NCBI GenBank assembly: GCA_015488295.1
Contig: WFOC01000079.1
Span: forward strand, 39,009-103,008
DNA length: 64,000 bases
Origin: Gammaproteobacteria bacterium
GTDB lineage: Bacteria; Pseudomonadota; Gammaproteobacteria; SZUA-229
Direction of reading: 5' to 3'
Made by a program: the position numbers and the translations under genes
Shown here: positions 1,147 to 18,611 of the stretch, in pieces
Numbering within the stretch: the first letter of the stretch is position 1
How the letters are laid out: every line of letters starts with the position of its first letter
Notes under the pieces: model-generated
Database searches by the model: none
The model's input: the letters and a program-made list of their open reading frames with translations, nothing else
What the model was told of the DNA's origin: nothing

Positions 1147-1195
1147 CAAGGTAAAAAGCAGGTGAAAAATCACTTGTCACAATATTGTAATAACT

Positions 1196-1217
1196 CTGTC
1201 ATTTTAATTTCATAATT
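1196..1217 (+). promoter_or_regulatory. Pho-box-like sequence (CTGTCATTTTAATTTCATAATT) upstream of pstS
   Basis: CTGTCAT half-site followed about 11 bp later by a TTTCATA half-site, in the 116-bp phoR-pstS gap. Resembles the PhoB box consensus CTGTCATA-N4-CTGTCAT. Confidence 0.35.
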
Positions 1218-1262
1218 AAAACACAAAATGTTCACACTTACTTAATCTGGAGTTCTAACATA

Positions 1263-2252: not shown

Positions 2253-2274
2253 GACACAGTCAGTCTTATAGAAA

Positions 2275-2300
2275 ATGCCGGGCTATCCCGGCATTTTTTA
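2275..2300 (+). terminator. Rho-independent terminator after pstS
   Basis: GCCGGGCTATCCCGGC hairpin followed by ATTTTTTA. Confidence 0.6.
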
Positions 2301-2606
2301 TTTGCTGCATTAGATACATTCTTTCAGCAAAAACAATAGATTGCATCTATTATCGCGACAGTACCACACCTGAAAACCTGATCTGAATCAAGAAAATAAC
2401 TACCCTTTTTGAGCACTACGCAAGTCGTCAGGTTTAGGTTAGAATACGCCCGCATTTTACGTGGTTGATGTTTTGCACACCGAAACAGGCTTCATCAGAA
2501 ATTGTTTCATCTGTCAGCAGCACACTAATCACAACTACAGAATTTTTAATTATTAGGCTGGTGCAGCATTTTGCAAAACCGGCGTGATCAACACTTGGAG
2601 ATACAG

Positions 2607-3871: not shown

Positions 3872-4015
3872 GATTAAAAGCATTTTTCACCACAGAGGCA
3901 CAGAGCACACAGAGTTTTTTTATCGTTAGCCGCGTCTGCGACGCATCTAACAATATATTATTTTTTCTCTGTGTGCTCTGTGCCTCTGTGGTGAATTACT
4001 TTTAAGCTTTTAATC
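3872..4015. repeat. Long palindromic element: perfect 28-bp inverted repeat (3887-3914 / 3967-3994) inside 10-bp outer arms
   Basis: TCACCACAGAGGCACAGAGCACACAGAG pairs perfectly with CTCTGTGTGCTCTGTGCCTCTGTGGTGA. Outer GATTAAAAGC/GCTTTTAATC arms overlap the apbE stop codon. The 52-nt loop contains a small GCGTCTGCGACGC hairpin. Confidence 0.8.
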
Positions 4016-4900
4016 AAGCCAGTAATCCACTTCCTGCAATTTCAAAAATGCTTCTGCATCGCCGCCCTGCAACATAGCCAGCGTTGACATCATGCCCGCC
4101 TCTACGCAGGTAGGCGCTGCGACACTCACCGTGTGCGGCGCACCAACCACAGGCCAGCCTGTTAGCGGATTTAATATGTGGCTGTAACGCACGCCGTCTT
4201 TTAGCAAATAACGATTGGCATCCCCGCTGGTGGCAATGGCACCACTGTATAACTGGAACATGCCACAGGCTTCATCAGAACCGGTAATCAAACGCCCGAC
4301 CGACCAGAAGGCTTTATCTTTACGTGCGGTAGTCATCGACAGGTCACCACCAAAATTCACCAGCACGCTTTGCCCGGTTTTTTGCCGCGCAATCTGCACA
4401 CAGCGATCAACGGCATACTCTTTACCGATGCCACCAAGATCGATCTCCATACCTGCCGGCAAAACGATGGTTGCATTTTCATGGCTAACTTTTTGCCAGC
4501 CGATATTTTTCAAAACCTTTTTCACCTGCTTTTTTGCTGGCAGATGATCACTACCATCAAAGTTCCAGACCTGGCGCAACACACCGGAGGTCACATCAAA
4601 CAGGCCGTCGCTTATTTCAAACAGCTCGTTGGAAAAATCCAGCAGGCGTGAGGTTTCTTCATCAATAGCAACAGCCTCACCCTGCGAATGATTTATTTTA
4701 AAAATAATATTATCTTTTTTATAACGACTGAACTTGTCTTCGATACGCCAGGCTTCGTCAGCCACAGCGTTGAGAATTTCCTGTGCCAGCAATTCGCCTT
4801 CGACTTCCATCAAAACATCGCAGGGACTGGCCATCGCCATGAAGGTGCCTTTCCAGAAATCGTTTTCTTTTTTTAATTCAGTGGCACGCATGTTTTTCAA
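4010..4900 (-). CDS. apbE: FAD:protein FMN transferase (ApbE family)
   Basis: ApbE signature GGIGKEYAVD and TSGDANRYL motifs. Length 296 aa. Confidence 0.85.
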   Translation of the reverse strand: MKNMRATELKKENDFWKGTFMAMASPCDVLMEVEGELLAQEILNAVADEAWRIEDKFSRYKKDNIIFKINHSQGEAVAIDEETSRLLDFSNELFEISDGLFDVTSGVLRQVWNFDGSDHLPAKKQVKKVLKNIGWQKVSHENATIVLPAGMEIDLGGIGKEYAVDRCVQIARQKTGQSVLVNFGGDLSMTTARKDKAFWSVGRLITGSDEACGMFQLYSGAIATSGDANRYLLKDGVRYSHILNPLTGWPVVGAPHTVSVAAPTCVEAGMMSTLAMLQGGDAEAFLKLQEVDYWLD

Positions 4901-4927
4901 AATCGTTAGAAAATTAAAAACATTATT

Positions 4928-5050
4928 TGTCCACAGATAAACACAAATAAACGCAAATATAAAAGCCGTATAACAAATACAGTAAAAAAATATTTTCTTT
5001 GCGTTTATTTGCGTTCATCTGTGGACGGTTAAACTTTTTAAGCTTTTATT
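4928..5050. repeat. Second long imperfect inverted-repeat element (arms 4928-4957 / 4998-5028) plus shared AAGCTTTTA flank
   Basis: TGTCCACAGATAAACACAAATAAACGCAAA pairs with TTTGCGTTTATTTGCGTTCATCTGTGGACGG with 2 mismatches. The flank CTTTTTAAGCTTTTATT resembles the 4001-4015 flank of the first element. Lies at the 3' end of the DUF971 gene. Confidence 0.75.
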
Positions 5051-5681
5051 TAGGCCGGGGCACAAACGCCACTTCATCACCATGCTCGATCAACGTGTAC
5101 GGCTCGGAAAACTGTTTGTTCACCGTCACCTGCAAACGGTCATCAGCAAAAGCTTCCTGCCAGCGCTCGCCACGTTTTCGCATCCACACCAGCAGGCTCT
5201 CGACATTAGTCACCGACTCGGGAACAATAACCTCCTCCTCGTCCTTGCCGGAGATTCTGGCCAGGTCAATAAAGTAAAGCAGCTTGATAACCACCTTGCC
5301 TTCCTGGTCAGTGATACGGGCATCACCCCGGCTCAGGCCGTGCTTTTCCAGACGCTCAAGATAAGCCTGCCAGTTGGCTTCATAATTTTTACCCAGCTCA
5401 TGCAACGTCGCCCAGGAATAAATACCGGTATCATGACCGTCATCAAAAGTGATCTTCAGTGCATAGGTACCCTGCGGGTCAAGCATGGAAATATTGACCA
5501 TCTGCTTGCCATGCACGGGCTTGTCCATCACCTTCACTTCTGCCGCAGTGGAAAACACGCGCAAATACTCACACGGGTACTGAAAGCGAAAACCATCGGT
5601 ATAGGCAATTTCCAGCAGACGTGATTTCTGGTGAAGTTTGATTTCGGTCGGACTAAAGTGGTTGTTTTCTGTTTCTGACAT
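5046..5681 (-). CDS. DUF971 domain fused to a MoaD/ThiS-like beta-grasp domain lacking the C-terminal GG
   Basis: N-terminal FRFQYPCEYLRV...ITFDDGHDTGIYSW matches the DUF971 pattern. C-terminal LQVTVNKQF...GDEVAFVPRPK is MoaD-like but ends in PRPK instead of GG. Confidence 0.6.
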   Translation of the reverse strand: MSETENNHFSPTEIKLHQKSRLLEIAYTDGFRFQYPCEYLRVFSTAAEVKVMDKPVHGKQMVNISMLDPQGTYALKITFDDGHDTGIYSWATLHELGKNYEANWQAYLERLEKHGLSRGDARITDQEGKVVIKLLYFIDLARISGKDEEEVIVPESVTNVESLLVWMRKRGERWQEAFADDRLQVTVNKQFSEPYTLIEHGDEVAFVPRPK

Positions 5682-6280
5682 TTAAAACTACATGCTCTCT
5701 GCTTGAATGATAACCGGGCCAGGCTATCAGGCCCGGCATAAAACAGCGCATATTCTACCTGTATTTTAAGCGCTGCAAGATTAATTCCCGTAAGGATAAT
5801 GATTCTCACTTAATATTGGCCGCCCGCCCTTGCAAGCCATTGATTTTTATAGACATAAAAACCATGCCACACTCATAAATAAAACTTATTGCAACCACAG
5901 CATTATTGTTTGGCGTTTGACCTCTTAGGGTCTAATCTGCACGCCTGAAAAGCGACTTGTTGTGTCGTTTTAATTGCTTTTACAGGTGCTTTGGGCATAC
6001 AATACGTGCCCCAACTTTAGCACCCTGGGCTCATTGTAATGATTCAACCGAATCCGGATGGGAACAGATAAAGCTGATATAACAGCAACTGTTATGTTGC
6101 TGGTAAACGAATTTTGATTCTAAACGGTAGCCTCTTCGGTAGTACCATTTTGGTAGTACAAGGGCGGCATCCAGAAAGATGAAAAAAGGTAGTTGTGAAA
6201 GAAATAGCCCTGCTGTCTTTTTCAACAAAACTATCGCAATTGCAATTGCATAAACTTTAAAACTCTAGGAGTTAATAATA

Positions 6281-6754
6281 ATGCCTACTTTTGTACGTAC
6301 TGAAAAGTGTGATGGATGTAAAGGCCAAGACCGTACAGCTTGCATGTACATCTGCCCACACGATTTAATGAAATTAGACAAAGATGGTTCTGACACAGGT
6401 CACGCCATGAAGTCTTACAACCAGGAACCAGAGCAATGCTGGGAATGTTATTCTTGCGTTAAAATCTGTCCTCAAAATGCTATCGAATGTCGTCACTATG
6501 CTGACGTTGTACCTCTGGGCGGCTCTGTACAGCCTTTACGTGGTACTGATTCAATTATGTGGACTATCAAGTTCCGTAACGGAAACATGAAGCGTTTCAA
6601 ATTCCCAATTCGCACCACTGCTGAAGGCTCTATCGATCCTTATGCTGGCAAACCAGAAGCTGACATGGCTAAGATCGAAGAGAACGGTTTCTTCAATCAC
6701 ATGGAACAGAACGGTTACCGTGCTGGTGATCCAAGCGAACTGATCTGTAAGTAA
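6281..6754 (+). CDS. aprB: Adenylylsulfate (APS) reductase beta subunit
   Basis: MPTFVRTEKCDGCKG...CMYICPHD ferredoxin-like N-terminus typical of AprB, immediately upstream of aprA. Confidence 0.9.
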   Translation: MPTFVRTEKCDGCKGQDRTACMYICPHDLMKLDKDGSDTGHAMKSYNQEPEQCWECYSCVKICPQNAIECRHYADVVPLGGSVQPLRGTDSIMWTIKFRNGNMKRFKFPIRTTAEGSIDPYAGKPEADMAKIEENGFFNHMEQNGYRAGDPSELICK

Positions 6755-6802: not shown

Positions 6803-8788
6803 ATGGCCGAATTTGGTAATCCAGATGTCGTCGAAGAAGAAGTAGACATTCTTCTTATCGGCGGTGGTATGGCTTGTTGTGGTACAGCGTTCGAACTTCC
6901 ACGTTGGATCGAAGCATCAGGCAAAGACATTTCTGTTAAATTAGTTGATAAAGCTGCAATGGACCGTTCAGGTGCTGTTGCTCAGGGTTTGTCTGCTATT
7001 AACACTTACATTGGTCCTGAACAGGATCCAGCTGACTACGCTCGTATGGTTTCTAACGACCTTATGGGTATTACTCGTGATGACCTCGCGTACGACCTGG
7101 GTCGCCACGTAGATGAGTCTGTTCACCTGTTTGAAGAATGGGGTCTGCCTATTTGGAAAACTGACGAGAACGGCGAGCGTTTCGACGGTTCTAAAGGCAT
7201 GACTTCACTGAAAGACGGTGGCAAGCCTGTACGTTCTGGTAAATGGCAAATCATGATTAATGGTGAGTCTTACAAATGGATTGTTGCTGAAGCTGCGAAA
7301 AAAGCTTTAGGTATCGACAATATCCAGGAACGTATTTTCATCGTTAAGCTGATCAACGACAAAAACGACCCTAGCAGAATTGCTGGCGCGGTTGGTTTCT
7401 CAACTCGTGAAGACAAGATCGTTATCTACAAAGCGAAAGCTATCCTGCTGGCTGCCGGTGGTTGTGTAAACATCTTCCGTCCACGTTCAGTTGGTGAAGG
7501 TACAGGTCGTGCATGGTACCCAGTATGGAACGCTGGTTCTACTTACTCAATGGCTGCTGAAGCAGGCGCTGAGCTGACTCTGATGGAAAACCGTTTCGTA
7601 CCGACTCGTTTCAAAGACGGTTACGGTCCTGTTGGCGCATGGTTCCTGCTGTTTAAAGCACAGGCTACTAACGCTTACGGCGAAGCTTACATGCAGAAAA
7701 ACAAAGAAATGCTGGATGACTACCCTCCATACGGTCAGGCTGCGGTTCCTGCTTCTTGTCTGCGTAACCACTTAATGCTGAAAGAGATGAAAGACGGTCA
7801 CGGTCCTATCTGGATGGATACTGTTACAGCTCTGGGCAACCTGCGCGAAACACTGTCTCCACGTGAAGTTAAGCACCTTGAAGCTGAAGCATGGGAAGAT
7901 TTCCTTGACATGTGTGTTGGCCAATGTGGTATCTGGGTTGGTGAAAACATTGAGCCAGAGAAGAAAAACTCTGAGTTAATGCCTACCGAACCGTACCTGC
8001 TGGGTTCTCACTCTGGTTGTTGTGGTATCTGGACTTCAGGTCCTACAGACGTAGGCGCGCCTACAACTGAAACTGAAGAAGGCGTACCTGAGCATCTGCC
8101 ACAGGGCTGGAACTGGGGCTACCGTGGTATGACCACAGTAAACGGTCTGTTCACAGCTGGTGACGGTGTTGGTGCTTCTGGCCACAAATTCTCTTCAGGC
8201 TCTCACGCTGAAGGTCGTATGTGTGCTAAATCAATGCTGAAGTACGTTTTAGACAATGAAGATTACAAACCAGAATTAGATACTTCTGTTGAAGATCTGG
8301 TTGCTGCAATCTATCAGCCTGTTCGTACTTACCTTGAGTTTAAAGACTACACAACAGCTATCGACGTTAACCCTAACTACATCACTCCTAAAATGCTGCA
8401 GTTCCGTCTGCAGAAAATCATGGACGAGTATGTAGCTGGTGTTGCAACTTACTACAACACTAACGCCGAAATGATGAAAGTTGCTGGTGAAAAACTGGAC
8501 GAACTGAAAATCGACGCTAAGAAGATGCGTGCTAAAGACCTTCACGAATTACTTCGTGCATGGGAAAACTATCACCGCATCCTGACAGCTGAAGCTCACT
8601 TGAAACACATCGAATTCCGTCAGGAATCTCGTTACCCTGGTTTCTACTACCGCACTGACAAGAACTTCGTTGATGAAGAAAACTGGCATTGCTTCGTAAA
8701 CTCTATTTACGATAAAGAGACTGGTAAGTGGACTTGCTTCAAACGTGCACACGTTGATTTGGTAGACAAGTCTAAACTGTTCAAATAA
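6803..8788 (+). CDS. aprA: Adenylylsulfate (APS) reductase alpha subunit (FAD)
   Basis: MAEFGNPDVVEEEVDILLIGGGMACCG FAD-binding N-terminus. 661 aa, typical AprA size. Confidence 0.95.
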   Translation: MAEFGNPDVVEEEVDILLIGGGMACCGTAFELPRWIEASGKDISVKLVDKAAMDRSGAVAQGLSAINTYIGPEQDPADYARMVSNDLMGITRDDLAYDLGRHVDESVHLFEEWGLPIWKTDENGERFDGSKGMTSLKDGGKPVRSGKWQIMINGESYKWIVAEAAKKALGIDNIQERIFIVKLINDKNDPSRIAGAVGFSTREDKIVIYKAKAILLAAGGCVNIFRPRSVGEGTGRAWYPVWNAGSTYSMAAEAGAELTLMENRFVPTRFKDGYGPVGAWFLLFKAQATNAYGEAYMQKNKEMLDDYPPYGQAAVPASCLRNHLMLKEMKDGHGPIWMDTVTALGNLRETLSPREVKHLEAEAWEDFLDMCVGQCGIWVGENIEPEKKNSELMPTEPYLLGSHSGCCGIWTSGPTDVGAPTTETEEGVPEHLPQGWNWGYRGMTTVNGLFTAGDGVGASGHKFSSGSHAEGRMCAKSMLKYVLDNEDYKPELDTSVEDLVAAIYQPVRTYLEFKDYTTAIDVNPNYITPKMLQFRLQKIMDEYVAGVATYYNTNAEMMKVAGEKLDELKIDAKKMRAKDLHELLRAWENYHRILTAEAHLKHIEFRQESRYPGFYYRTDKNFVDEENWHCFVNSIYDKETGKWTCFKRAHVDLVDKSKLFK

Positions 8789-9050: not shown

Positions 9051-9962
9051 ATGAGCCAAGACGACACTTTCAAATTTGAACTGCCCCACTCAAGCCCAGT
9101 GGAACCTACCCGACTTGAACTGGACGACAAATTAAAATTTCGTTGCCACCGCGGCGTGTCCTGCTGGAACCGCTGTTGTTCACGTGCAGACGTAACGCTC
9201 GCGCCTTACGACATCCTGCGCATGAAGGATGCCCTCGGTATGGACACCACAGAATTCCTTAAACAACACACCGTTCCTTTCGAACTCGACATGCATAGCG
9301 TTCCCGGCTTAAAGCTGCGCACCGATGATGAAGGAGCCTGCCTGTTCATGGGCAAAGAAGGCTGCTCGGTTTATGACAACCGCCCCACTGCCTGCCGTTA
9401 TTACCCGTCCGGCCTGCTGTCAATGAAATCCATCAGCGAAGCCACTGACGAACGTCACTTCCTGCTGATCAAGGAAGACCACTGTAAAGGCCATGACGAA
9501 GACCAGATTCAAACCATCGGCGAATACCGCAAGGCACAGGGCGTGGAAGAATACGACGACCTCAACCACGAGTGGTACCAGATCATCCTGAAGAAAAAAT
9601 CCACCGGCCCCAGCATCGGCAAACCATCCGACATGAGCCTGCAGATGTTCTTCATGGCCAGCTACGACATGGACCGCTTCCGCCGCTTCGTAATGAGCGA
9701 TTCCTTCATCAAGATGTACGACCTGAGCGACGACGAATACGCCGAACTGGAAAAAGATGATATCGCACTGATGAAATTCGGTTTCAGATTAATGAAGCAG
9801 GTTTTCTTCGGTGAGCTAACCATCAAGGAACGTGAAGGTGCCTGGGAAGAGCGCATCAAGGAACGCAAGGAAATTCTTGAGTTCCGCAAGCAGGCGGAAA
9901 TTGCTGCACATCAGAAAAGAGAAGAAGAAGCACGCAACGCATCGATAGACGATAAAGAGTAA
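9051..9962 (+). CDS. YkgJ/UPF0153-family putative Fe-S (Cys-cluster) protein with K/E-rich C-terminal tail
   Basis: CHRGVSCWNRCC cluster plus ACLFMGKEGCSVYDNRPTACRYYP matches the CxxCxxCC zinc/iron-chelating domain family. The C-terminal 50 aa are highly charged. Confidence 0.7.
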   Translation: MSQDDTFKFELPHSSPVEPTRLELDDKLKFRCHRGVSCWNRCCSRADVTLAPYDILRMKDALGMDTTEFLKQHTVPFELDMHSVPGLKLRTDDEGACLFMGKEGCSVYDNRPTACRYYPSGLLSMKSISEATDERHFLLIKEDHCKGHDEDQIQTIGEYRKAQGVEEYDDLNHEWYQIILKKKSTGPSIGKPSDMSLQMFFMASYDMDRFRRFVMSDSFIKMYDLSDDEYAELEKDDIALMKFGFRLMKQVFFGELTIKEREGAWEERIKERKEILEFRKQAEIAAHQKREEEARNASIDDKE

Positions 9963-9967
9963 AAGAT

Positions 9968-10048
9968 AGTTGGCAGTCGTTAGTTTGCAGTTAGCAGCAA
10001 AAGCTGGAAACAAAAAAACTTTTAACTACTAACTGACGACTGCCAACT
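9968..10048. repeat. GTTGGCAG palindromic repeat element, copy A
   Basis: AGTTGGCAGTCGTTAGTT ... AACTAACTGACGACTGCCAACT inverted repeat followed by TTTT. Probable terminator between the ykgJ-like gene and the phosphoesterase gene. Confidence 0.6.
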
Positions 10049-10063
10049 TTTCAATAAAAAACT

Positions 10064-10591
10064 ATGACGAACAAAAACGTAACCGTCGGCATCCTGTCCG
10101 ACTCGCATGGCTACCTTGACCCGAGAGTCGCAGAAGTTGTCAACCAGTGTGACTATATCGTACACGCCGGCGACATTTTCAATGCACAGGTTTTAGCGCA
10201 GCTGAAGCCTGCGAAAAAGCTGGTCGCGGTTAGCGGCAATAACGATTACCCGGCCTTCTGGAAAGCGGAAGAAGCAGCTATCGTTAAAGCCTTACCCCCT
10301 ACCGCAAAACTACAACTGCCCGGCGGCACCATCTACGTCGAACACGGCCACCGTCTGGGCAACCACCCCGACCACAACGAACTGCGCCGCGACCACGCCG
10401 AAGCCAAACTGATCGTTTACGGTCATACCCATCACCGCATCATCGACCAGCAGGCCGAACCCTGGGTGGTAAATCCTGGCGCTTCAGGCAAGGTAAGAAC
10501 ACACGGCGGGCCTTCGTGTCTGGTGTTGCATGCCAGCGAAGAGGAATGGAAAATTGAGACGGTTCTGTTTGCAGATTCTGCTGCAGCTTAA
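10064..10591 (+). CDS. Metallophosphoesterase (YfcE/MJ0936-like calcineurin-type phosphoesterase)
   Basis: DSHG, GD, GNND, HGH and GHTHH metal-binding motifs in canonical order. Confidence 0.8.
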   Translation: MTNKNVTVGILSDSHGYLDPRVAEVVNQCDYIVHAGDIFNAQVLAQLKPAKKLVAVSGNNDYPAFWKAEEAAIVKALPPTAKLQLPGGTIYVEHGHRLGNHPDHNELRRDHAEAKLIVYGHTHHRIIDQQAEPWVVNPGASGKVRTHGGPSCLVLHASEEEWKIETVLFADSAAA

Positions 10592-10686: not shown

Positions 10687-11421
10687 CTACGCTTTTATAT
10701 AAACCCAGCCCTTCTTCAAACGCTCGGGAATCAACTCTCTGGCAGCTCTATCTGTTGTCACACCATCCATTAGCACAATTTCAACCCCTTCTTTTTTATG
10801 CGCTTTATCGATAGAGCGCTGACAGGCAAAAACTGCAACATCCTCGTCATCAACCAGCTTTTTTATGCGCGCAAGATAAGGCGACACACCAGGGCGCAAG
10901 ACATTAATGCCAGCCTTGTTGGTCACAATATCCAGCTTTATAGGCTTGTCCGCTTTACGGTAACTCGCCAGTAAATTATCAGCCTCATCTAATGCCGCTT
11001 TAACAATCTGCTGATTATTGGAGTCGATGTGTAATATGATCCTGCGCTCTTTATGGTCGACAGTGACATGGTTGGCAACAAACTGAAAAGTATTCTCAGC
11101 CGAAACTGCATTCACCGAATTAGGACTGTATTCATAAGTTGACCAGCCCAGCAACACACCCACAACCAGCGTCACAGAAGCGGCCACAGCCCTGTTTACA
11201 AATGAACCTGAACGTCGTCTGTCGGGACTCCTGTGGCGCGATGGCGGCACTTCACTGTAGGCATAGCCAATCAGCTCGCGTACCGCTTTTAACTGGCACA
11301 CCTGTTCACGCAAATCTTTGTTATCCAGCAAAGCTTCGTGTATCTCATTCATTTCATCGGTATCGAGCTGTTCATCGATGAATAGATTTAATTTATCTTC
11401 TGTAATGTCCTTGATGTTCAT
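10687..11421 (-). CDS. Anti-sigma factor with a single TM helix and a periplasmic DsrE/YchN-like domain
   Basis: Translationally coupled to the ECF sigma gene, sharing base 11421. TM segment AVAASVTLVVGVLLGW. The C-terminal 140 aa are paralogous to the two secreted DsrE-like proteins and carry the conserved Cys in FACQRS. Confidence 0.7.
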   Translation of the reverse strand: MNIKDITEDKLNLFIDEQLDTDEMNEIHEALLDNKDLREQVCQLKAVRELIGYAYSEVPPSRHRSPDRRRSGSFVNRAVAASVTLVVGVLLGWSTYEYSPNSVNAVSAENTFQFVANHVTVDHKERRIILHIDSNNQQIVKAALDEADNLLASYRKADKPIKLDIVTNKAGINVLRPGVSPYLARIKKLVDDEDVAVFACQRSIDKAHKKEGVEIVLMDGVTTDRAARELIPERLKKGWVYIKA

Positions 11422-11969
11422 TATTTAACCCTCCGCAATTTGAACTCGGATAAATCATCCGAACCAAATTCAAGTAACTGCTGTTTCAAGTTTTTGCGAG
11501 CTCTGAACAAACGACTCATGACAGTACCGATTGGCACTTCTGTAATCTCTGCAATCTGCGCATAACTAAAACCGGCAAAATCAGCCAGTGTAACGACTTC
11601 ACGTAATGGTAGCGGCAACTGCTCAACAGAAGCCCTGACGCGTTTGACAATTTGTGATTGTTGATAGTTCTCAGAATGGCCGGCCTGATCTTCGTCATGC
11701 ATCTCAACAAACTCGACATTGCGTCCTTTCACTCGCAGATAGTCCTGCCAGCAATTGTACAAAATCCGGTATAACCAGCTATCCATGGTCTCCACATCGC
11801 GCAGCCTGGATGCATTTTTTATCGCTTTGTAGATCGTCTCCTGCACCAGGTCATCAGCCAGCGCCGGATCGTGACACCATGTGTACGCAATGCGATACAA
11901 CTTGTTTCGCCGGGCGGCAAACTCCGATTTTAATGAGAACGCGGCCACCAGATCTTTAACTATTTTCAT
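11421..11969 (-). CDS. ECF-type RNA polymerase sigma factor
   Basis: Region 2 LVQETIYKAIKN...WLYRILYNCWQDYLR and region 4 FSYAQIAEITEVPIGTVMSRLFRARKNL. Start taken at MKIVKDL. Confidence 0.85.
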   Translation of the reverse strand: MKIVKDLVAAFSLKSEFAARRNKLYRIAYTWCHDPALADDLVQETIYKAIKNASRLRDVETMDSWLYRILYNCWQDYLRVKGRNVEFVEMHDEDQAGHSENYQQSQIVKRVRASVEQLPLPLREVVTLADFAGFSYAQIAEITEVPIGTVMSRLFRARKNLKQQLLEFGSDDLSEFKLRRVK

Positions 11970-12080
11970 AAAAACTCCCAATAACATAATAGAGACGCAG
12001 CAACAGGAAAAATATTCTCAAAAATAATTGTGAATATTTTACGCCCCCGCCCCGTCTCTTAGCTGTCGGAATTTATCAAG

Positions 12081-12614
12081 ATGTATGCAGAAAAACAAAT
12101 GATTCAGAAAATTTACCTGATAGTGCTCACTTTATTCACGGTTCAGAGCAACATCGCTCATGCCAACCTCGATCTCCCGCTTGAAGGAATCGATGGCAGA
12201 CAGCACAAGGTTTCAGAATATCTCAACCAGGGCAAATGGGTGGTTTTGAATATTTTGGGCACCCGCTGCCCACCCTGCCGTGAAGAAATGCCTGAACTGG
12301 TACATTTTCACGACGAACAGAATGGAGCCATGGTGGTAGCCATCGCCATTGACTTTCCCAGCTACGGTTACGCAAAACAGGGCGAAGTCGCAAGCTTTGC
12401 AGACGACTACCTCATTGACTTCCCCGTCCTCCTGAGCGACTCGAGCATCACAGAAAAGCTGGGGCTGGGCACACTGGAAGGCCTGCCGACAACATACATA
12501 TTCAGCCCGGAAGGCAAGGTCGCTGGCATGCAGGTCGGCGGCATCAATCAGAACATACTGAAGAACTTTATAAAAAAATCAAAGCTGCAAGTTCCCGGCA
12601 GCGAAAACCAATAA
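12081..12614 (+). CDS. TlpA/ResA-like periplasmic thiol:disulfide oxidoreductase (thioredoxin fold, CPPC)
   Basis: Signal peptide, then GKWVVLNILGTRCPPCREEMPEL thioredoxin-like CxxC motif. Confidence 0.75.
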   Translation: MYAEKQMIQKIYLIVLTLFTVQSNIAHANLDLPLEGIDGRQHKVSEYLNQGKWVVLNILGTRCPPCREEMPELVHFHDEQNGAMVVAIAIDFPSYGYAKQGEVASFADDYLIDFPVLLSDSSITEKLGLGTLEGLPTTYIFSPEGKVAGMQVGGINQNILKNFIKKSKLQVPGSENQ

Positions 12615-12659
12615 TAACCGGGATCAAACCTGAAAACTTAAACCAAAAAGAGGAAAAAA

Positions 12660-13148
12660 ATGAAAACACTACAAACAAAACTACTGGCCGCTTTTTTGAT
12701 GAGCATGTGCCTGTTGATGATGAACGCTGCCAATGCAGGCGACCGTTACGGAAAACAAAAAGTGGTCTATCACATCAATTATGACAACCCCAAAAAACAG
12801 TCCGGTGCACTGCGCAACATCCAGAATCACATCAACGCTGTCGGTGCCGAAAATCTTGACCTGAGAGTTGTATTACACGGCCACGGTCTGTCCTTACTGC
12901 TGGACCCGGATTCATTAGCCAAGCTGAAAAAATTCAAGCATGCCAATGCAAATGAAACCATGACAGCCAAAATCGACAATCTGAAAAACCAGGGTATCAA
13001 ATTCAACGTCTGCGCTAACACCGTTCGCGGCAGAAAAGTTGACATCGACTCTGACCTGCACAATGTTGACAAGAGCGACATCGTTCCTAGCGGCGTTGCC
13101 GAACTGGCTCATCTGCAATCATTAGGGTACGCCTACGTTAAACCATAA
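12660..13148 (+). CDS. Secreted DsrE/DsrF-like (YchN-fold) family protein, paralog 1
   Basis: Signal peptide MKTLQTKLLAAFLMSMCLLMMNAANA. KVVYHINYDNP...ALRNIQNHI...LRVVLHGHGL...FNVCANT matches the DsrE-family topology with the conserved Cys. Confidence 0.65.
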   Translation: MKTLQTKLLAAFLMSMCLLMMNAANAGDRYGKQKVVYHINYDNPKKQSGALRNIQNHINAVGAENLDLRVVLHGHGLSLLLDPDSLAKLKKFKHANANETMTAKIDNLKNQGIKFNVCANTVRGRKVDIDSDLHNVDKSDIVPSGVAELAHLQSLGYAYVKP

Positions 13149-13343
13149 GACTGCATATTCATGTCATTACGTGACTCTCACAGCTTGCTAAAAGCAGATA
13201 TTTTATCTGCCTCCTGCCGAGCGCCACGTGATGACAGTTTTTAAAAACATGTGAATAAATTATTACTCACGCCGTCTTGTAGTAATGGAATAGCAAAACC
13301 AAAACCATTATTTTAAAAATAAAAACCTAAATAGGAGATATTC

Positions 13344-13784
13344 ATGAAAAAATTAACTTCCATCTTTTTACTATTGATAGCAATGACGGGAAGCTATCAG
13401 ATACAGGCTGGTGAAGATGACAAGCCTTTTGCAGAAGAAAGAATCGTACTTCAAATCAGTGATCCCAACCCTTTCAAACAAACACTGGTACTCAATGTCG
13501 CAACCAACCTGATCAAATACTACGGCCAGGACAAAGTTGATATTGAAATCGTCGCCTTCGGCCCCGGCCTGCGTCTGATGTTCAAGGACAACGTAAACCA
13601 CAAGCGTATTAAAGGCCTGTCAAACAGCGGTGTAAAATTTGCAGCATGTAAAAACACCATTGCAGGCATGACCAAAAAACTAGGTCACGCACCTGAATTA
13701 CATGCCAGCGCAGTACCAGTCTCTGCCGGCGTAGTACGCATTATCGAATTAGAAAATCAGGGTTTCAAACTGATCAAACCATAA
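13344..13784 (+). CDS. Secreted DsrE/DsrF-like (YchN-fold) family protein, paralog 2
   Basis: Signal peptide. RIVLQISDPNP...LVLNVATNL...IEIVAFGPGL...FAACKNT. C-terminal GFKLIKP resembles paralog 1 GYAYVKP. Confidence 0.65.
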   Translation: MKKLTSIFLLLIAMTGSYQIQAGEDDKPFAEERIVLQISDPNPFKQTLVLNVATNLIKYYGQDKVDIEIVAFGPGLRLMFKDNVNHKRIKGLSNSGVKFAACKNTIAGMTKKLGHAPELHASAVPVSAGVVRIIELENQGFKLIKP

Positions 13785-13838
13785 TAAAAATCATACCTAA
13801 CAAAATATAAAAGCTTTTTCCTTTCGGGAGGATGAACA

Positions 13839-15200
13839 ATGAATTTAAAAAGAAACATGTTATTAAAAACAGCTGGAGTTGTGCTGTTATCAGGCGCTTC
13901 AACTGTACATTCCGCAAACTGGCTGGCACTACAGGGCACAGAACCTGACGGTCAGTCGGCACGTGCCAGAGTATGGGGTTTTGTACAACCTGAATATCAG
14001 TCAATGAGCGGCAGCAAAGTTGAAGCCGGCGCATGGAAAGGCAGCGAAGCTGTTTTTAACCAGATCGGTCCAGACCTGAAAACCAGCAGCTCATTCAATA
14101 TACGACGCGCCCGTATCGGTGTACGTGGCACCGGTTTTCCACTAGACAACAAAGTCAACTATTTCTTCCTGGCTGAATTTGGTAACAACGGCATCACTCG
14201 CCCGGGCAACGGAACAGGTAGTGCAAAAGTTACTGATGCCAGCGTAACACTGAGCCACATTCCCGGTGCCCGCATTCGTGTTGGTCAATTCAAAACACCC
14301 GGCGCGGAAGAAGGCCTGCAAGCTATTCACGTTTTTGACTACATCAACTTTACCGGCGTAACCAACGGCCTGTTACTGGAACGTTTCTTTGATAGTGATG
14401 GGTCAGACACCTTCTTCACACCAAGCAGCAACTCCGGTGCCGGCGGCAACAAGAATGGCGCAAATGGCCCTGTCGGTGCCTTCCGTGACATTGGTGTCCA
14501 GGTATTTGATACCTTCAAAGTCAATGACTGGGAACTCAGTTACGCTGCCATGCTTGGTAACGGAAACGGCATAACCCGTGGTGACAATGATGACAACAAG
14601 GAAACTTATCTGTACGCATCTGCAGAACTGGTCTTTGGTGGTAAAGGTGGTCGTCGCCAGGGCTGGAAAATGTTCGTATGGAACCAGGATGGCAAACGCA
14701 CAATTAAAGCAACACCCGCTCAGGTCGAAGGCGAATTTGATCGCACACGTAGCGGTCTGGGCACAACCTTCCGCAAAGGAAAATACCGAGCAGCCGCTGA
14801 ATACATTACAGCTGACGGCATGATCTTTAACGGCACAGATGGTGGTGCAGTACCTGGCTCAACTTCTGCTGGCCCGGGTGTGACAGCTTCTTTCAACATG
14901 GAAACAGTCGGCGAAGCAAATGGTTATTACGCCCACTTTGGTTACATGATTATGCCTAACCTCGAACTGGATATTCGCTATGACGTTTATAACCGTATGA
15001 CTGATGTTGCAGCAAAAGAAAGAAAGTTCACAACAACAACACTTGGTGCACAGTACTTCTTTAACAAGAAGAGCCGTTTCACTTTAAACTACGAACTACG
15101 CGATGCCGAAGCACCTAACCTTGCTTCAACACACAATGCCAACAAGATATTGGGTGAAATCGACAATCGTATTTCAGCACAATTGCTGATCATCTTCTAA
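13839..15200 (+). CDS. Outer-membrane beta-barrel porin (phosphate-selective porin O/P-like)
   Basis: Signal peptide, alternating amphipathic beta-strand pattern, and a C-terminal aromatic residue (...SAQLLIIF). Confidence 0.6.
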   Translation: MNLKRNMLLKTAGVVLLSGASTVHSANWLALQGTEPDGQSARARVWGFVQPEYQSMSGSKVEAGAWKGSEAVFNQIGPDLKTSSSFNIRRARIGVRGTGFPLDNKVNYFFLAEFGNNGITRPGNGTGSAKVTDASVTLSHIPGARIRVGQFKTPGAEEGLQAIHVFDYINFTGVTNGLLLERFFDSDGSDTFFTPSSNSGAGGNKNGANGPVGAFRDIGVQVFDTFKVNDWELSYAAMLGNGNGITRGDNDDNKETYLYASAELVFGGKGGRRQGWKMFVWNQDGKRTIKATPAQVEGEFDRTRSGLGTTFRKGKYRAAAEYITADGMIFNGTDGGAVPGSTSAGPGVTASFNMETVGEANGYYAHFGYMIMPNLELDIRYDVYNRMTDVAAKERKFTTTTLGAQYFFNKKSRFTLNYELRDAEAPNLASTHNANKILGEIDNRISAQLLIIF

Positions 15201-15280
15201 GGAATATTTTTCCTGGATAGATTTAAAAAATAAAGGTAAATCCTGCGTTAATCATCATGCTATGTGATACACGCTTTGAG

Positions 15281-15312
15281 GGGGTCGAAAGATCCCCTCT
15301 TTTTTTGTTTAC
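15281..15312 (+). terminator. Rho-independent terminator after porin gene
   Basis: GAGGGGGTCGAAAGATCCCCTC hairpin followed by T7. Confidence 0.7.
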
Positions 15313-15363
15313 GCATTTCGCATCACGATATATATTCATAAATTCAAACAAGGACTAATCAAC

Positions 15364-15831
15364 ATGAACAGCAAAACACTAAAAATAATTTTCAGCCTCA
15401 TAACACTCAGCTCTGGCTGCACTACTGTTATCGCAAGCGAAACAGATGGCATAATAAAAACGAAAAGCGCACACAGCGTTACAGAAACAATAAACAGACT
15501 GGAAGCCGTATTAAACAAAAAAGGCATGACCATATTCAAACGCGTCAACCACACTGCTGGCGCAAACAAGGCCGGCCTGCAACTGCGCCCCACCGAATTG
15601 CTGATATTCGGCAACCCGAAAGTCGGCACACCATTGATGCAATGCTCACAAACCGCAGCACTGGACCTTCCACAAAAAGCACTGGCATACAAGGATAAAA
15701 AGGGACAGGTATGGCTGATCTACAATGACCCGGCCTACATGGCAGAAAGACACCATCTTCACGGCTGCGAGAAAGCAGTTCAGAAAGTCACCAATGCACT
15801 GGCTAGATTTGCCAGTGCAGCTACAAAATAA
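15364..15831 (+). CDS. DUF302 domain lipoprotein
   Basis: Lipobox LSSGC. ETINRLEAVLNKKGMTIFKRVNH...LRPTELLIFGNPKVGTPLM...DLPQKALAYKDKKGQVWLIYNDPAYM matches the DUF302 pattern. Confidence 0.7.
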   Translation: MNSKTLKIIFSLITLSSGCTTVIASETDGIIKTKSAHSVTETINRLEAVLNKKGMTIFKRVNHTAGANKAGLQLRPTELLIFGNPKVGTPLMQCSQTAALDLPQKALAYKDKKGQVWLIYNDPAYMAERHHLHGCEKAVQKVTNALARFASAATK

Positions 15832-16017: not shown

Positions 16018-16404
16018 ATGAAATCATTCAAGCGCACACTGGCTCTGATCCTGTCAATTTCATTATTCAGCATTTCTTTTGGCCATGCTCATGCCGCCAT
16101 AGTCACAAACGACCAAATCATACATCAAGCCCAACAGGAAATAGATAAAACAACTCTGCTAACAATGATCAATCACTTAGATGTTCAGGAACAATTACTC
16201 AGCATGGGTGTCTCCAGCACCGACATAAAAGAGCGCATCAAGCAGATGACACAGGAAGAAATTGCACAACTCAACTCGCAACTTGATAATTTACCCGCCG
16301 GTGGCGATATACTTGGTATCGCCGTTCTCATATTTATTGTTTTTGTCGTTACAGATGTCATTGGCGCAACAGATCTATTCCCGTTCATTCACCCCATCAA
16401 ATAA
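16018..16404 (+). CDS. PA2779-family small protein (signal peptide, GG motif, C-terminal hydrophobic segment)
   Basis: 128-aa protein. It resembles the PA2779 family and sits upstream of a PA2778-type peptidase. Confidence 0.55.
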   Translation: MKSFKRTLALILSISLFSISFGHAHAAIVTNDQIIHQAQQEIDKTTLLTMINHLDVQEQLLSMGVSSTDIKERIKQMTQEEIAQLNSQLDNLPAGGDILGIAVLIFIVFVVTDVIGATDLFPFIHPIK

Positions 16405-16410
16405 TAATGA

Positions 16411-17379
16411 ATGAAAACACTGATACTGCCTATATGCCTGCTAGTCTTAAGCGGCTGCGCATCAACACCACAAAGCAGTCACATAAAAGCTAATGGCCCG
16501 GGCTTCCTGCCATCAGCTATCGAATTGACAGACACACCTTTTTTTCCACAGACACAACATCAATGTGGGCCTGCGGCATTGGCAACCGTGCTACAGGCTC
16601 ACAACATAAAAGCCACACCAGAAACCCTGTCCAGCCAGGTCTACATTCCTGAACGTCAGGGCAGCCTGCAGATAGAAATGGCTGTCGCTGCACGTCGACA
16701 CGGGATGTTGCCATATCCTCTGGACACCCAAATGACCGCACTTTTCGCAGAAATAGCTGCCGGTAACCCGGTGCTGGTTTTACAGAACCTCAGTTTTGAA
16801 TGGTATCCAAAATGGCACTACGCAGTGGTCGTTGGATATGATTATGACAATCAGGAAATCACCCTTCGATCCGGTACAAGCAAACGCTGGGTTACACCTT
16901 TTGAAGTATTCGAACGAACATGGCAACGTGCTGATTTCTGGGCACTGGTCATCGTACCTGCAGGTGTGGTGCCCGCAACAGCAGAACCACTGCGTTATCT
17001 AAAAACCGCCTATGCCTTCGAAGAAACAGGTCACTATAAACTTGCTCTCAAAACATACCGGTCAGCTAGCAAACGCTGGCCTGAAATCAGCATCACCTGG
17101 ATAACACTGGGAAACATGGCTTATAAAAATCATTATTGGCTTGAGGCCATTAATGCATTTAATACCGCTTTAAACATTGACCCAAAATCAATCACCAGTT
17201 GGAATAATCTGGCTTATACACTACATGCCTATGGCTGTCAGAAACCAGCCATAAAGGCGCTCCAATGTGGTTTAAACATTACGCCAACTGATAAAAACCT
17301 ATTAAATTCATGGAAAGAGTTACATAACAACCCTGCTAACAATCAAATAAACTGCCCAAACATTCAATGTTACAAATAA
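16411..17379 (+). CDS. PA2778-family C39-like cysteine peptidase with C-terminal TPR repeats
   Basis: QCGPAALATVLQAH papain-like/C39 catalytic Cys motif. The C-terminal half carries TPR-like AYKNHYWLEAINAFNTALNIDP repeats. Confidence 0.7.
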   Translation: MKTLILPICLLVLSGCASTPQSSHIKANGPGFLPSAIELTDTPFFPQTQHQCGPAALATVLQAHNIKATPETLSSQVYIPERQGSLQIEMAVAARRHGMLPYPLDTQMTALFAEIAAGNPVLVLQNLSFEWYPKWHYAVVVGYDYDNQEITLRSGTSKRWVTPFEVFERTWQRADFWALVIVPAGVVPATAEPLRYLKTAYAFEETGHYKLALKTYRSASKRWPEISITWITLGNMAYKNHYWLEAINAFNTALNIDPKSITSWNNLAYTLHAYGCQKPAIKALQCGLNITPTDKNLLNSWKELHNNPANNQINCPNIQCYK

Positions 17380-17504: not shown

Positions 17505-18611
17505 ATGAACCTCCCCCAAATTGATGACTACCGCTCTATTTTATTAAACGACACTCCGTTACTGGATGTCCGTGCTCCGGTAGAATTTGAGCAGGGCGCT
17601 TTCCCCTTTACAGAAAACCTCCCGCTGATCAACAATCAGGAACGCGAGGCTATCGGCATTTGCTATAAGAATCAGGGACAGGACGAAGCCATAAAGCTTG
17701 GCCATAAACTGGTACAGGGCGAAATAAAATCACAGCGTGTAAATGGCTGGCAGGATTTTTTTGAACGCTATCCTCAGGGCGTGCTTTACTGCTTTCGTGG
17801 CGGCATGCGTTCAAAAATATCACAACAGTGGATCTATGAACAAACAGGGAAAATCTATCCACGGATAAAGGGCGGCTACAAAGCCATGCGCCGTTTTCTG
17901 ATTGATGAACTAGAAGCATCAACCCGGCAGATCAGTCCTGTCATGCTGGGTGGCCGCACCGGCATCGGCAAAACACTTTTGTTACATGAATTAAAACAGC
18001 AGGTCGACCTCGAAGGTATCTATCACCATCGTGGCTCGGTGTTTGGCAAGCACGTCACGCCACAACCGTCACAGATCGATATTGAAAATACACTGTCTAT
18101 CAAACTACTAAAACTTCTGGATAAAAAACATTCACGAATTGTTTTTGAAGATGAAGGCACCAATATCGGCTCACGACTGATTCCCGATGTGTTATACCAA
18201 AAAATGAAACAATCGCCTCTCATTCTGCTTGAAGCAAACACCGATGAACGGGTCGATATAACATTTCAGGAATACATCATCGAGTCATTGTCCGAGCACC
18301 AGAAACATCTCGGTGAAGAACAGGGGTTTAAATCATGGTGCGAACAGTTACAACTATCCATCGACAAAATACAGCGCCGTCTGGGCGGCGTTCGATACAA
18401 AGAACTTAAAGCTCTGCTTACCGATGCCATCCAGCAGCAAATAACAAGCGGCGATAACGAGCACCACAAACAGTGGATAAAAACGTTATTAGTCGATTAT
18501 TACGACCCGATGTATGATTTTCAGACACAAAAAAAACAGGATCGTGTTGTCTTTAAAGGGCAGAAAAATGAGGTCCTTTCCTATTTGAAAGAGCAATATC
18601 AAATAACTTGA
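17505..18611 (+). CDS. selU: tRNA 2-selenouridine/geranyl-2-thiouridine synthase
   Basis: N-terminal rhodanese domain (LLDVRAPVEFEQGAFP...CFRGGMRS) plus P-loop GGRTGIGKT. Confidence 0.85.
   Translation: MNLPQIDDYRSILLNDTPLLDVRAPVEFEQGAFPFTENLPLINNQEREAIGICYKNQGQDEAIKLGHKLVQGEIKSQRVNGWQDFFERYPQGVLYCFRGGMRSKISQQWIYEQTGKIYPRIKGGYKAMRRFLIDELEASTRQISPVMLGGRTGIGKTLLLHELKQQVDLEGIYHHRGSVFGKHVTPQPSQIDIENTLSIKLLKLLDKKHSRIVFEDEGTNIGSRLIPDVLYQKMKQSPLILLEANTDERVDITFQEYIIESLSEHQKHLGEEQGFKSWCEQLQLSIDKIQRRLGGVRYKELKALLTDAIQQQITSGDNEHHKQWIKTLLVDYYDPMYDFQTQKKQDRVVFKGQKNEVLSYLKEQYQIT

Follow-up and report, generated by a model that had tools for sequence, protein, structure and literature searches.

Among the closest described counterparts of the regulatory system reported here are the ECF26 systems. 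In Sinorhizobium meliloti (RpoE4/RpoE1) and Starkeya novella (RpoE), extracytoplasmic function (ECF) sigma factors of this group mediate the induction of adjacent genes of periplasmic sulfur oxidation (sorT or sorAB) by sulfite-generating compounds (PMC3511301). The locus that we analyzed lies at positions 10687 to 15831 of a 64-kb stretch of DNA from a gammaproteobacterium (contig WFOC01000079.1; hereafter the window) and contains seven open reading frames (ORFs), which encode an ECF sigma factor, an anti-sigma factor ending in a DsrE-like domain, a TlpA-like oxidoreductase, two secreted DsrE-like proteins (A and B), a porin and a DUF302 protein. Like the ECF26 systems, it appears to consist of an ECF sigma factor that is cotranscribed with a membrane anti-sigma factor, autoregulated and neighbored by genes of periplasmic sulfur metabolism, and its predicted promoters, like theirs, have GAA at -35 and GT at -10. 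In contrast, ECF26 anti-sigma factors carry a COG5662 domain in place of the DsrE-like domain, and their targets encode sulfite dehydrogenase and electron acceptors rather than DsrE-like proteins and a porin.

The DsrE-like domains share with DsrEFH and TusBCD the superfamily fold and an arrangement in which paralogues are encoded together, and their cysteine probably occupies the corresponding position, between the third strand and the helix that comes next. However, DsrEFH and TusBCD are cytoplasmic heterohexamers associated with TusA and DsrC/TusE, whereas the proteins of this locus are predicted to be exported or anchored in the membrane facing the periplasm, with one copy fused to an anti-sigma domain. 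Pfam and NCBIfam scans detected no TusA, DsrC, DsrF or DsrH in the locus. Cysteines of the DsrE family carry persulfide or thiosulfonate, as PMC13047784 cites for Metallosphaera DsrE3A. The relatives closest in both sequence and structure are MTH1491 (Protein Data Bank [PDB] 1L1S) and ST0148 (PDB 2PD2), which match over their full length and have an A-C-x-N-T motif. Unlike the proteins described here, they are archaeal and cytoplasmic, they lack a signal peptide and a fusion, and they have no known function or partners.

In function the locus may be compared with SoxYZ and SoxS/SoxW/SoxV, that is, with a periplasmic single-cysteine sulfur carrier and its dedicated thioredoxin-fold reductase, and in several lineages the module lies within or beside sox genes. 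The likeness would be one of function and not of family, as SoxYZ has an unrelated all-beta fold and is not encoded within 10687-15831. Secreted DsrE-like proteins associated with sox genes and thioredoxin have been reported in Methylovirgula thiovorans HY1, where the gene for a periplasmic DsrE-like protein (MHY1_00068) belongs to a sox operon (PMC9371685), and in Sulfurovum indicum, where a thiosulfate-induced dsrE lies beside soxW (PMC10045233). The authors of both studies proposed periplasmic sulfur transferases on the basis of genome or transcriptome surveys and did not characterize the proteins; an ECF regulator, a porin partner and biochemistry are absent from these accounts. The statement in an initial annotation of this DNA, made from the sequence, that periplasmic DsrE-like proteins are not described was therefore slightly overstated, although the published examples are indeed uncharacterized. 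The porin, finally, belongs to the family of the anion-specific porins OprP and OprO of Pseudomonas aeruginosa (Porin_O_P), but its predicted regulation is by an ECF sigma factor and not by the Pho regulon.

In agreement with the initial annotation, our literature search found no connection between DsrE and ECF or anti-sigma factors, and the text of the ECF re-classification paper does not mention DsrE. We regard the module as a genuine and conserved sensor variant of the well-known ECF sigma/anti-sigma type, one that apparently has not been described. Automatic annotation at the Joint Genome Institute (JGI) gives these anti-sigma factors the name “intracellular sulfur oxidation DsrE/DsrF family protein,” which recognizes the DsrE domain but gives the wrong location and misses the regulatory role.

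The Anti-Sigma Factor Carries a Homologue of the Secreted DsrE-Like Proteins

All three DsrE-like domains matched MTH1491 over its full length (E = 2.5e-8 for A, 2.2e-7 for B and 1.2e-4 for the anti-sigma domain). Protein B was 29% identical to A (E = 2e-16) and 27% identical to the anti-sigma domain (E = 3e-4). A direct BLASTP comparison of the anti-sigma factor with A was not significant, and the homology of these two is visible through B, MTH1491 and profiles. A profile built from 26 secreted homologues matched 1L1S (E = 5.9e-26) and ST0148 (E = 2.4e-18) in the PDB. When profiles of the anti-sigma family (33 sequences) and the secreted family were compared with each other, they aligned at 99.6% probability (E = 1.2e-24) over 118 columns that span the whole mature secreted protein and anti-sigma residues 122-244, with the cysteines in the same column.

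The predicted structure points in the same direction. In Foldseek searches, the C-terminal domain of an AlphaFold model of the anti-sigma factor matched 1L1S (TM 0.89) and 2PD2 (TM 0.87); further matches were YchN (1JX7), 3MC3 and 2HY5_A (DsrE of DsrEFH), all at probability 1.00, and two Sulfolobus DsrE/DsrF-like proteins are among the structures that the model resembles. On the basis of the 1L1S matches, the profiles and the modeled fold, we assign all three domains to the MTH1491/COG1416 branch of the DsrE/YchN superfamily. The sensor domain and the secreted proteins are therefore homologous, as had been suggested, but they are old paralogues and not recent duplicates: at about 27-29% identity, they are roughly as distant from one another as from archaeal MTH1491.

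The homology extends to a single cysteine. The motifs originally quoted for the three domains (FACQRS, FNVCANT and FAACKNT) occur in the sequences exactly as given, and Cys200 of the sensor domain aligns with Cys118 of A (nucleotides [nt] 13011-13013, in FNVCANT), Cys102 of B (nt 13647-13649, in FAACKNT) and the cysteine of MTH1491. Relative to B, protein A has a 15-residue insertion. In the model, Cys200 sits between strand 195-199 and helix 201-211, a position that, judging from the topology and from the DsrE sequence, probably corresponds to that of Cys78 in DsrE/TusD (where the third strand gives way to a helix). Cys200 was invariant in all 144 sequences compared (143 full-length representatives and the window protein), and in each of the 143 representatives the C-terminal 125 residues contained no other cysteine. 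Other conserved residues were W239 and Y241 (143 of 144 each) and N168 (136 of 144). The aligned cysteine was likewise kept in 26 of 26 secreted homologues, where it stands in a near-invariant C-x-N-T motif as compared to the relaxed C-x-(N/Q/R/K)-(T/A) of the sensor. Signal peptides were recognized by eye, with putative cleavage sites ANA/G in A and IQA/G in B, and with AHA/N and VHS/A as further sites in the locus.

In the AlphaFold model (mean pLDDT 86, about 95 in the C-terminal domain), the anti-sigma factor has helices 8-15, 21-33 and 35-56 in the N-terminal region (residues about 8-56), a single membrane helix at 74-97, a disordered linker at 99-120, and a compact alpha/beta domain of the DsrE/MTH1491 type at 125-244 (nt 10690-11049). 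The helical N-terminal region, which carries the motif LNAFVDxELD conserved across the family alignment, would bind the sigma factor. Basic residues precede the membrane helix, and the DsrE-like domain is therefore predicted to face the periplasm.

The sigma factor itself consists only of the sigma-2 and sigma-4 regions (Pfam Sigma70_r2, 50.6 bits; Sigma70_r4_2, 59.5 bits), scored 81 bits with the NCBIfam sigma70-ECF model TIGR02937 (cut-off 42.9), and matched SigH, SigE and RpoE in the PDB. The ORF initially assigned to it (11421-11987) is present, but its start at 11987 is probably not used: translation most likely begins at the ATG at 11969, giving 182 amino acids. A GGGAG Shine-Dalgarno sequence at 11975-11979 lies 5 nt upstream of this ATG, and public gene calls on related and identical contigs also give a sigma factor of 182 amino acids.

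A Shared Promoter Motif Precedes the Sigma Factor Gene and Its Neighbors

Promoters were predicted by phylogenetic footprinting. A motif with the consensus GGAATAwwT-N12-14-CGTCT occurs three times in the window, before the genes for the sigma factor, the TlpA-like protein (tlpA) and DsrE-like B. The 93-bp gap between the sigma factor gene and tlpA holds two of these copies back to back (GAATAtttt-N-CGTCT), one in each direction. In a refined form (GAATA-N14-17-CGTC) the motif had exactly three matches in the 64 kb of the window, all of them in the locus and correctly oriented. A looser scan (GAAT-N15-18-CGTCT) returned four matches versus 1.35 expected; the fourth promoter-like match (52396-52422, minus strand) has no GAATA core, and we attribute it to chance.

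Across 995 kb of related loci there were 184 motif matches versus about 30 expected from base counting. Sorted by downstream gene, 70 preceded the sigma factor gene, 35 homologues of DsrE-like B, 17 tlpA and nine homologues of DsrE-like A. Nearly all related loci have the motif upstream of the sigma factor gene, most of them have it on the divergent strand as well, and it recurred before the same genes across about 70 species. This is strong evidence, at the level of predicted promoters, that the sigma factor regulates its own expression and drives the divergent genes. The wiring proposed in the initial annotation was borne out to this extent. As for the two promoters that it had anticipated, the motif is present upstream of 12081, whereas the 45-bp gap between tlpA and the DsrE-like A gene at 12660 does not contain it.

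The -35 boxes of the two divergent promoters form an inverted repeat (12009-12021 / 12028-12040). We considered the possibility that this palindrome (12009-12040) is the operator of a dimeric regulator and rejected it as the main reading: each half has a correctly spaced CGTCT, there is no palindrome at the third site (13253), and the distance between the two promoters varies in distant loci.

In four loci of one distant lineage, the motif also lies 5' of a cutA-dsbD pair found 3-4 kb downstream of the anti-sigma factor gene (L033, about 11956-11982; L036, about 4673-4698; L037, about 6392-6418; L038, about 11796-11822; all on the plus strand). DsbD supplies electrons to periplasmic reductases of the thioredoxin fold. 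These matches suggest that in this lineage the regulon includes the supply of reducing power to the periplasm.

Another recurrent neighbor of the module is a lipoprotein that combines a PEGA domain with a C-terminal SHOCT domain (L063, 5531-6031, minus strand; L074, 414-974, plus strand; L070, 5986-6663, plus strand). Its gene has the ECF motif upstream in L063 and L074. The L070 member was identified with a Pfam scan, and those of L063 and L074 were judged from their sequences.

The Module Is Widespread Among Sulfur Oxidizers and Has a Conserved Core

An exhaustive search of 1.84 billion cluster representatives returned the full-length anti-sigma architecture in 746 clusters (50% identity) at E ≤ 0.001 and in 475 clusters at E ≤ 1e-10. 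Nearly all of these proteins were 230-260 amino acids long and aligned from about residue 5 to residue 243, and the fusion of the DsrE-like domain to the anti-sigma factor is therefore ancient and stable. In a second scan, for which we used one genome per species and an alignment of 10 anti-sigma sequences, relatives were found in the genomes of 188 species. Those hosts that are named are almost exclusively sulfur oxidizers: Thiotrichaceae, Sulfuriferula, Sideroxydans, Gallionellaceae, Sulfuricella, Thiohalobacter, Thiogranum, Ectothiorhodospiraceae, Woeseiaceae, Arenicellales and Chromatiaceae.

The gene neighborhood was surveyed in the 56 loci with at least 2.5 kb of sequence upstream of the sigma factor gene. 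Because our greedy ORF caller produced antisense artifacts in GC-rich loci, we counted homology matches and not gene calls; L063 and L077 were scored as lacking a DsrE-like gene solely through merged ORFs. A divergent gene for a secreted DsrE-like protein was present in 40 loci, a porin gene in 33 and both in 32, and the porin gene was located 3' of the homologue of DsrE-like B in 32 loci. The conserved target set is thus DsrE-like B and the OprP-like porin, while tlpA (21 loci), the DUF302 gene (13 loci) and DsrE-like A are variable accessories. The complete arrangement, including its location next to aprBA, is preserved in close relatives (at least 60% identity), and distant relatives (30-35% identity) retain a core.

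The remaining observations concern variant loci. In six loci of the Thiohalobacter/Thiogranum type (L038, L041, L044, L057, L061 and L078), there was no DsrE-like or porin gene within 8 kb, and inspection by eye placed the sigma/anti-sigma pair between glnE/pilT-like and groEL-like genes. In L001 (8795-9326, minus strand) and L006, where the anti-sigma factor is 72% identical to that of the window, tlpA is split into two overlapping ORFs, likely as a result of a frameshift or because it is a pseudogene. A ModA/CysP-type oxyanion-binding protein (7754-8755, minus strand, in L001) replaces DsrE-like A in these two loci, and both the porin and the DUF302 genes are absent.

Proteins Encoded With the Sigma Factor and Anti-Sigma Factor

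The family assignments of the three remaining proteins were all confirmed. The TlpA-like protein has an N-terminal hydrophobic signal and a CPPC motif at residues 63-66 (nt 12267-12278). It matched the Pfam families AhpC-TSA (64.3 bits) and Redoxin (50.3 bits), a ResA/StoA/TlpA model of NCBIfam, and the PDB structures of ResA (E = 8e-13) and TlpA (1JFU, E = 4e-7). All of the NCBIfam equivalog cut-offs were missed, and we therefore regard it as a member of the family and not as an orthologue of any named enzyme.

The porin scored 38.9 bits with Pfam Porin_O_P (PF07396; cut-off 20.9). A sequence search of the PDB gave no match. Its AlphaFold model, of moderate confidence (pLDDT 71), is a beta barrel for which the best Foldseek match in the PDB was the phosphate porin OprP (2O4V, E = 2e-14), with OprO (4RJW) at rank 10; the modeled structure aligned with OprP at a TM of about 0.5 and about 15% identity. 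The C-terminus also scored 25.6 bits with the NCBIfam model for ExtI, for which the cut-off is 150.

The DUF302 protein was clearly assigned (Pfam PF03625, 71.9 bits, cut-off 23; PDB 7TJ1, E = 1e-33). Its signal sequence ends in LSSGC, by eye an approximate lipobox, and it is possibly a lipoprotein. Its synteny is kept in close relatives of the window locus. On the other hand, a terminator-like hairpin precedes the gene and no ECF motif lies upstream of it, so that it probably forms a separate transcription unit, and its inclusion among the wired members of the cluster was not upheld.

Secreted DsrE-like proteins and TlpA-family proteins also occur together elsewhere. On Rhizobium plasmids, translational coupling links a gene for a secreted DsrE-like protein to one of the TlpA family, and no ECF system lies close by; this suggests that a DsrE-like carrier and a TlpA reductase make up a unit in their own right. 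In Rhizobium tumorigenes (plasmid NZ_CP117265.1; L081, 6857-7973), the first gene of the pair encodes a 170-amino-acid hypothetical protein with a Tat-like signal, an MTH1491-like DsrE domain and the conserved cysteine, and it overlaps the start of a gene annotated as “TlpA disulfide reductase family protein,” whose product has a WCVFC motif. The DsrE-like gene is also present on six further Rhizobium plasmids; the TlpA-family neighbor is annotated in H3, and in the other five that position is unannotated.

Related Loci Are Linked to Genes of Sulfur Metabolism

Also present in the window are sat, aprB and aprA. When all of its ORFs were searched by phmmer with the Sox proteins of a related locus (L065), no SoxYZ was detected. 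In other lineages, on the other hand, the module is found together with sox genes. In L065, from a proteobacterial metagenome-assembled genome (MAG), the operon divergent from the sigma factor gene has the order soxY-soxA-soxB-porin-DsrE-like-soxX, with the motif before soxY. In L058 (Gallionellaceae) and L062 (an unclassified proteobacterial MAG), soxY-soxZ-soxB and a gene for a YeeE/TsuA-like transporter lie 3' of the anti-sigma factor gene, and the divergent DsrE-like gene is accompanied by a weak DUF302 match; that of L058, at 6181-6657, scored 19.8 bits, below the cut-off.

Similar associations were observed in Woeseiaceae. On one side of the sigma/anti-sigma pair of L075 are genes for a YeeE/TsuA-like transporter, a thioredoxin, a porin and a DsrE-like protein, and on the other side is a ModA/CysP-type binding protein gene; a second DsrE-like gene lies beside soxB. 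L073 has a binding protein gene and a soxX-Y-Z-A cluster with the motif before soxX. A single match to the motif likewise precedes a SoxB-like gene in L070. The YeeE neighbors scored best against the thiosulfate transporter TsuA.

The initial annotation had linked the locus to periplasmic sulfur chemistry. Together with the taxonomy of the hosts, the sox genes, the YeeE/TsuA-like transporters and the oxyanion-binding proteins found beside the module elsewhere support this link, and they constitute strong circumstantial evidence for an association with periplasmic sulfur oxidation.

A Model for the Module and Its Alternatives

We propose that the module senses reduced-sulfur or thiosulfate-type species in the periplasm and in response switches on a porin, carriers that work through a cysteine and a reductase for their maintenance, a role that we consider somewhat probable. 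At rest, the N-terminal domain of the anti-sigma factor would keep the sigma factor at the membrane. A periplasmic reduced-sulfur species, probably thiosulfate, polysulfide/persulfide or a related sulfur oxyanion, would be recognized by the DsrE-like domain, most likely at Cys200, and either a conformational change or regulated proteolysis would then free the sigma factor. Once released, it would transcribe from three promoters, those of its own operon, of tlpA and DsrE-like A, and of DsrE-like B and the porin gene. The porin would provide entry through the outer membrane for the anionic sulfur compound, the secreted DsrE-like proteins would bind or carry it on their single cysteine, and the TlpA-like reductase, fed by DsbD, would keep the exposed cysteines reduced or remove wrong adducts. 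In this proposal, which is the simpler reading of the paralogy, sensor and carriers have one fold because both recognize the same sulfur species.

To our knowledge, few regulators of sox-type genes have been described, envelope sensing and outer-membrane passage of reduced sulfur are poorly understood, and we know of no porin proven to be specific for sulfur compounds. The module would be a widespread candidate for three steps, namely the sensor, the entry pore and the periplasmic carrier. At least 188 species possess it, among them the cultivable Sulfuriferula, Sideroxydans and Thiohalobacter, and its promoter is predictable enough for the regulon to be defined in any genome. DsrE-like proteins have so far been studied as cytoplasmic sulfur relays and would here be placed in the periplasm, which also suggests a possible function for the solved but unexplained MTH1491/ST0148 family. 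An anti-sigma sensor built around a single invariant periplasmic cysteine would be unusual signaling chemistry.

Several points tell against this proposal. With respect to the proteins, the Pfam DsrE check (PF02635, gathering score 22.7) suggested in the initial annotation was passed by A (43.9 bits), but B (15.5 bits) and residues 161-216 of the anti-sigma factor (14.3 bits) fell short of it, although in other loci distant homologues of B scored above it (28-36 bits). No curated anti-sigma model of Pfam or NCBIfam matched the N-terminal domain, the NCBIfam “antisigma” model reaching 15 bits against a cut-off of 100. The C-x-N-T motif is relaxed in the anti-sigma domain, whose chemistry may therefore differ from that of the secreted proteins. 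Our literature search found no member of the MTH1491/COG1416 branch with demonstrated sulfur-transfer activity. The anion selectivity of the porin is presumed from its family membership, the signal and the cysteine chemistry are deduced from the genes, and no protease for regulated proteolysis is encoded nearby. With respect to distribution, the pairing of DsrE-like and TlpA proteins in Rhizobium, which is not a lithotroph, indicates that this pair is not confined to sulfur oxidizers. In addition, neither a DsrE-like nor a porin gene lies near the module in about one quarter of the loci (the Thiohalobacter/Thiogranum type); the targets there must differ or be located in another part of the genome.

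A different explanation for the paralogy of sensor and targets is that the sensor domain forms mixed oligomers with the secreted proteins, so that sigma factor activity reports the amount of free or loaded carrier in a feedback circuit that involves no small-molecule sensing. Sensor and targets are homologous over the whole domain, their genes are side by side in 40 of the 56 loci, and, as the sigma factor is predicted to drive the promoter of the paralogue, a feedback loop is topologically possible. MTH1491-type proteins form oligomers, and ST0148, the closest solved relative, serves as the oligomeric block in the designed protein cage 8UJA. However, the paralogues are only about 27% identical, similar to their distance from MTH1491, and conservation of the interface is therefore not evident. 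The absence of a nearby paralogue from about one quarter of the loci speaks against such a circuit, and the strict invariance of a single cysteine is better explained by chemistry than by docking alone. The initial annotation had called the layout a classic self-monitoring circuit; this was an analogy, and our results do not show that the sensor monitors its paralogues. We regard mixed-oligomer feedback as unlikely.

It could also be speculated that sensor and carriers are connected by sulfur itself. The carriers would hand on sulfane sulfur or a thiosulfonate group, one cysteine to the next, until it reaches Cys200; this covalent transfer would free the sigma factor, and TlpA and DsbD would reset the system. 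We view this relay as distinctly unlikely. If true, it would amount to transmembrane signaling by a sulfur relay, with a logic resembling that of a phosphorelay, and would provide the first function for the COG1416 branch of the DsrE superfamily.

Another possibility is a general sensor of thiol redox state or oxidant stress in the envelope, in which the lone cysteine is oxidized by an oxidant, copper or disulfide stress and the regulon repairs thiols, with no role specific to lithotrophy. The TlpA-like reductase in the regulon, the motif before cutA-dsbD in four loci, the DsrE-like/TlpA pair in non-lithotrophic Rhizobium and a PCuAC copper chaperone gene adjoining the module in L058 would all be consistent with this. 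Even so, it is the DsrE-like protein and the porin, and not the reductase, that are the conserved targets, and a repair regulon leaves a dedicated porin unexplained. The almost exclusive presence of sulfur oxidizers among the named hosts and the recurrent sox, YeeE/TsuA-like and oxyanion-binding neighbors, with the motif before soxY and soxX, also speak against a general stress response, and we consider it quite improbable. A last possibility, that the porin and cysteine proteins take up or detoxify selenite or tellurite, as could be read from the resemblance of the porin C-terminus to ExtI (the porin of a selenite/tellurite reduction operon), a SelU-like gene 1.7 kb downstream and putative selenium transporters among the relatives of YeeE/YedE, is very improbable given that the ExtI match is far under its cut-off, SelU is not among the recurrent neighbor families of the census, the YeeE neighbors score best against TsuA and the sox links point to sulfur.

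Organization of the Locus and Flanking Genes

All seven ORFs of the initial annotation were found at their positions (Table 1). The stop codon of the sigma factor gene overlaps the start codon of the anti-sigma factor gene (ATGA), which couples the two ORFs. The likely transcription units are the sigma and anti-sigma factor genes, tlpA with DsrE-like A, and DsrE-like B with the porin gene.

Table 1. Genes, predicted promoters and other features of the locus (positions in the window).
Feature	Position	Strand	Evidence
Anti-sigma factor, 244 amino acids	10687-11421	-	ORF, AlphaFold, Foldseek, PDB phmmer, family alignment
Codon of Cys200 of the anti-sigma factor	10822-10824	-	Sole cysteine of the periplasmic domain
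ECF sigma factor, 182 amino acids	11421-11969	-	Pfam, NCBIfam and PDB matches, Shine-Dalgarno sequence, public gene call
Predicted ECF promoter of the sigma/anti-sigma operon (autoregulation), GAATATTTTTCCTGTTGCTGCGTCT	11993-12017	-	Motif scan
Predicted ECF promoter of tlpA and DsrE-like A, GAATATTTTACGCCCCCGCCCCGTCT	12032-12057	+	Motif scan
Exported TlpA/ResA-type oxidoreductase	12081-12614	+	Pfam, NCBIfam, PDB
DsrE-like protein A, secreted, 162 amino acids	12660-13148	+	Pfam DsrE, 1L1S match
Predicted ECF promoter of DsrE-like B and porin, GAATAAATTATTACTCACGCCGTCT	13253-13277	+	Motif scan
DsrE-like protein B, secreted, 146 amino acids	13344-13784	+	1L1S match, family profile
Outer-membrane porin, OprO/OprP family, 453 amino acids	13839-15200	+	Pfam, AlphaFold, Foldseek
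Terminator-like hairpin and T-run 3' of the porin gene	15278-15299	+	Sequence
DUF302 protein, 155 amino acids	15364-15831	+	Pfam DUF302, PDB 7TJ1

Between DsrE-like A and the third ECF promoter, just 5' of the latter, is an 18-nt inverted repeat (13162-13179 / 13219-13236; 83% complementary, 39-nt loop) that is followed by a T-run from 13238. It may be the terminator of the tlpA transcript or a regulatory structure.

Three groups of flanking genes were considered as parts of the module and set aside, and the motif scan returned no match upstream of any of them. Between aprA and the anti-sigma factor gene, 9051-10591 (plus strand) encodes a protein with a CxxCxxCC (YkgJ-like) zinc/iron-chelating domain and a YfcE-family phosphodiesterase. 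The order aprBA, CxxCxxCC, phosphodiesterase, anti-sigma factor is kept in about 17 relatives with at least 47% anti-sigma identity; this synteny extends down to about 47% identity and is absent from loci at 30-36%. Directly after the DUF302 gene, 16018-17379 (plus strand) encodes a protein of the PA2779 family (DUF6627) and a C39-like cysteine peptidase of the PA2778 family that contains TPR repeats. This pair, which is also found 3' of the porin gene in L009, accompanies the module only in close relatives (L009 and L082). The SelU-like gene (tRNA 2-selenouridine synthase; 17505-18611, plus strand; public annotation AAA_SelU), whose product has by eye a rhodanese-like N-terminus, does so only in the close relative L082.

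Further upstream, 79-3800 (plus strand) encodes PhoR and a PstS-family phosphate-binding protein and precedes sat, and 4010-5681 (minus strand), between sat and aprB, encodes an ApbE-like flavin transferase and a 211-amino-acid protein with a MoaD-like C-terminus.

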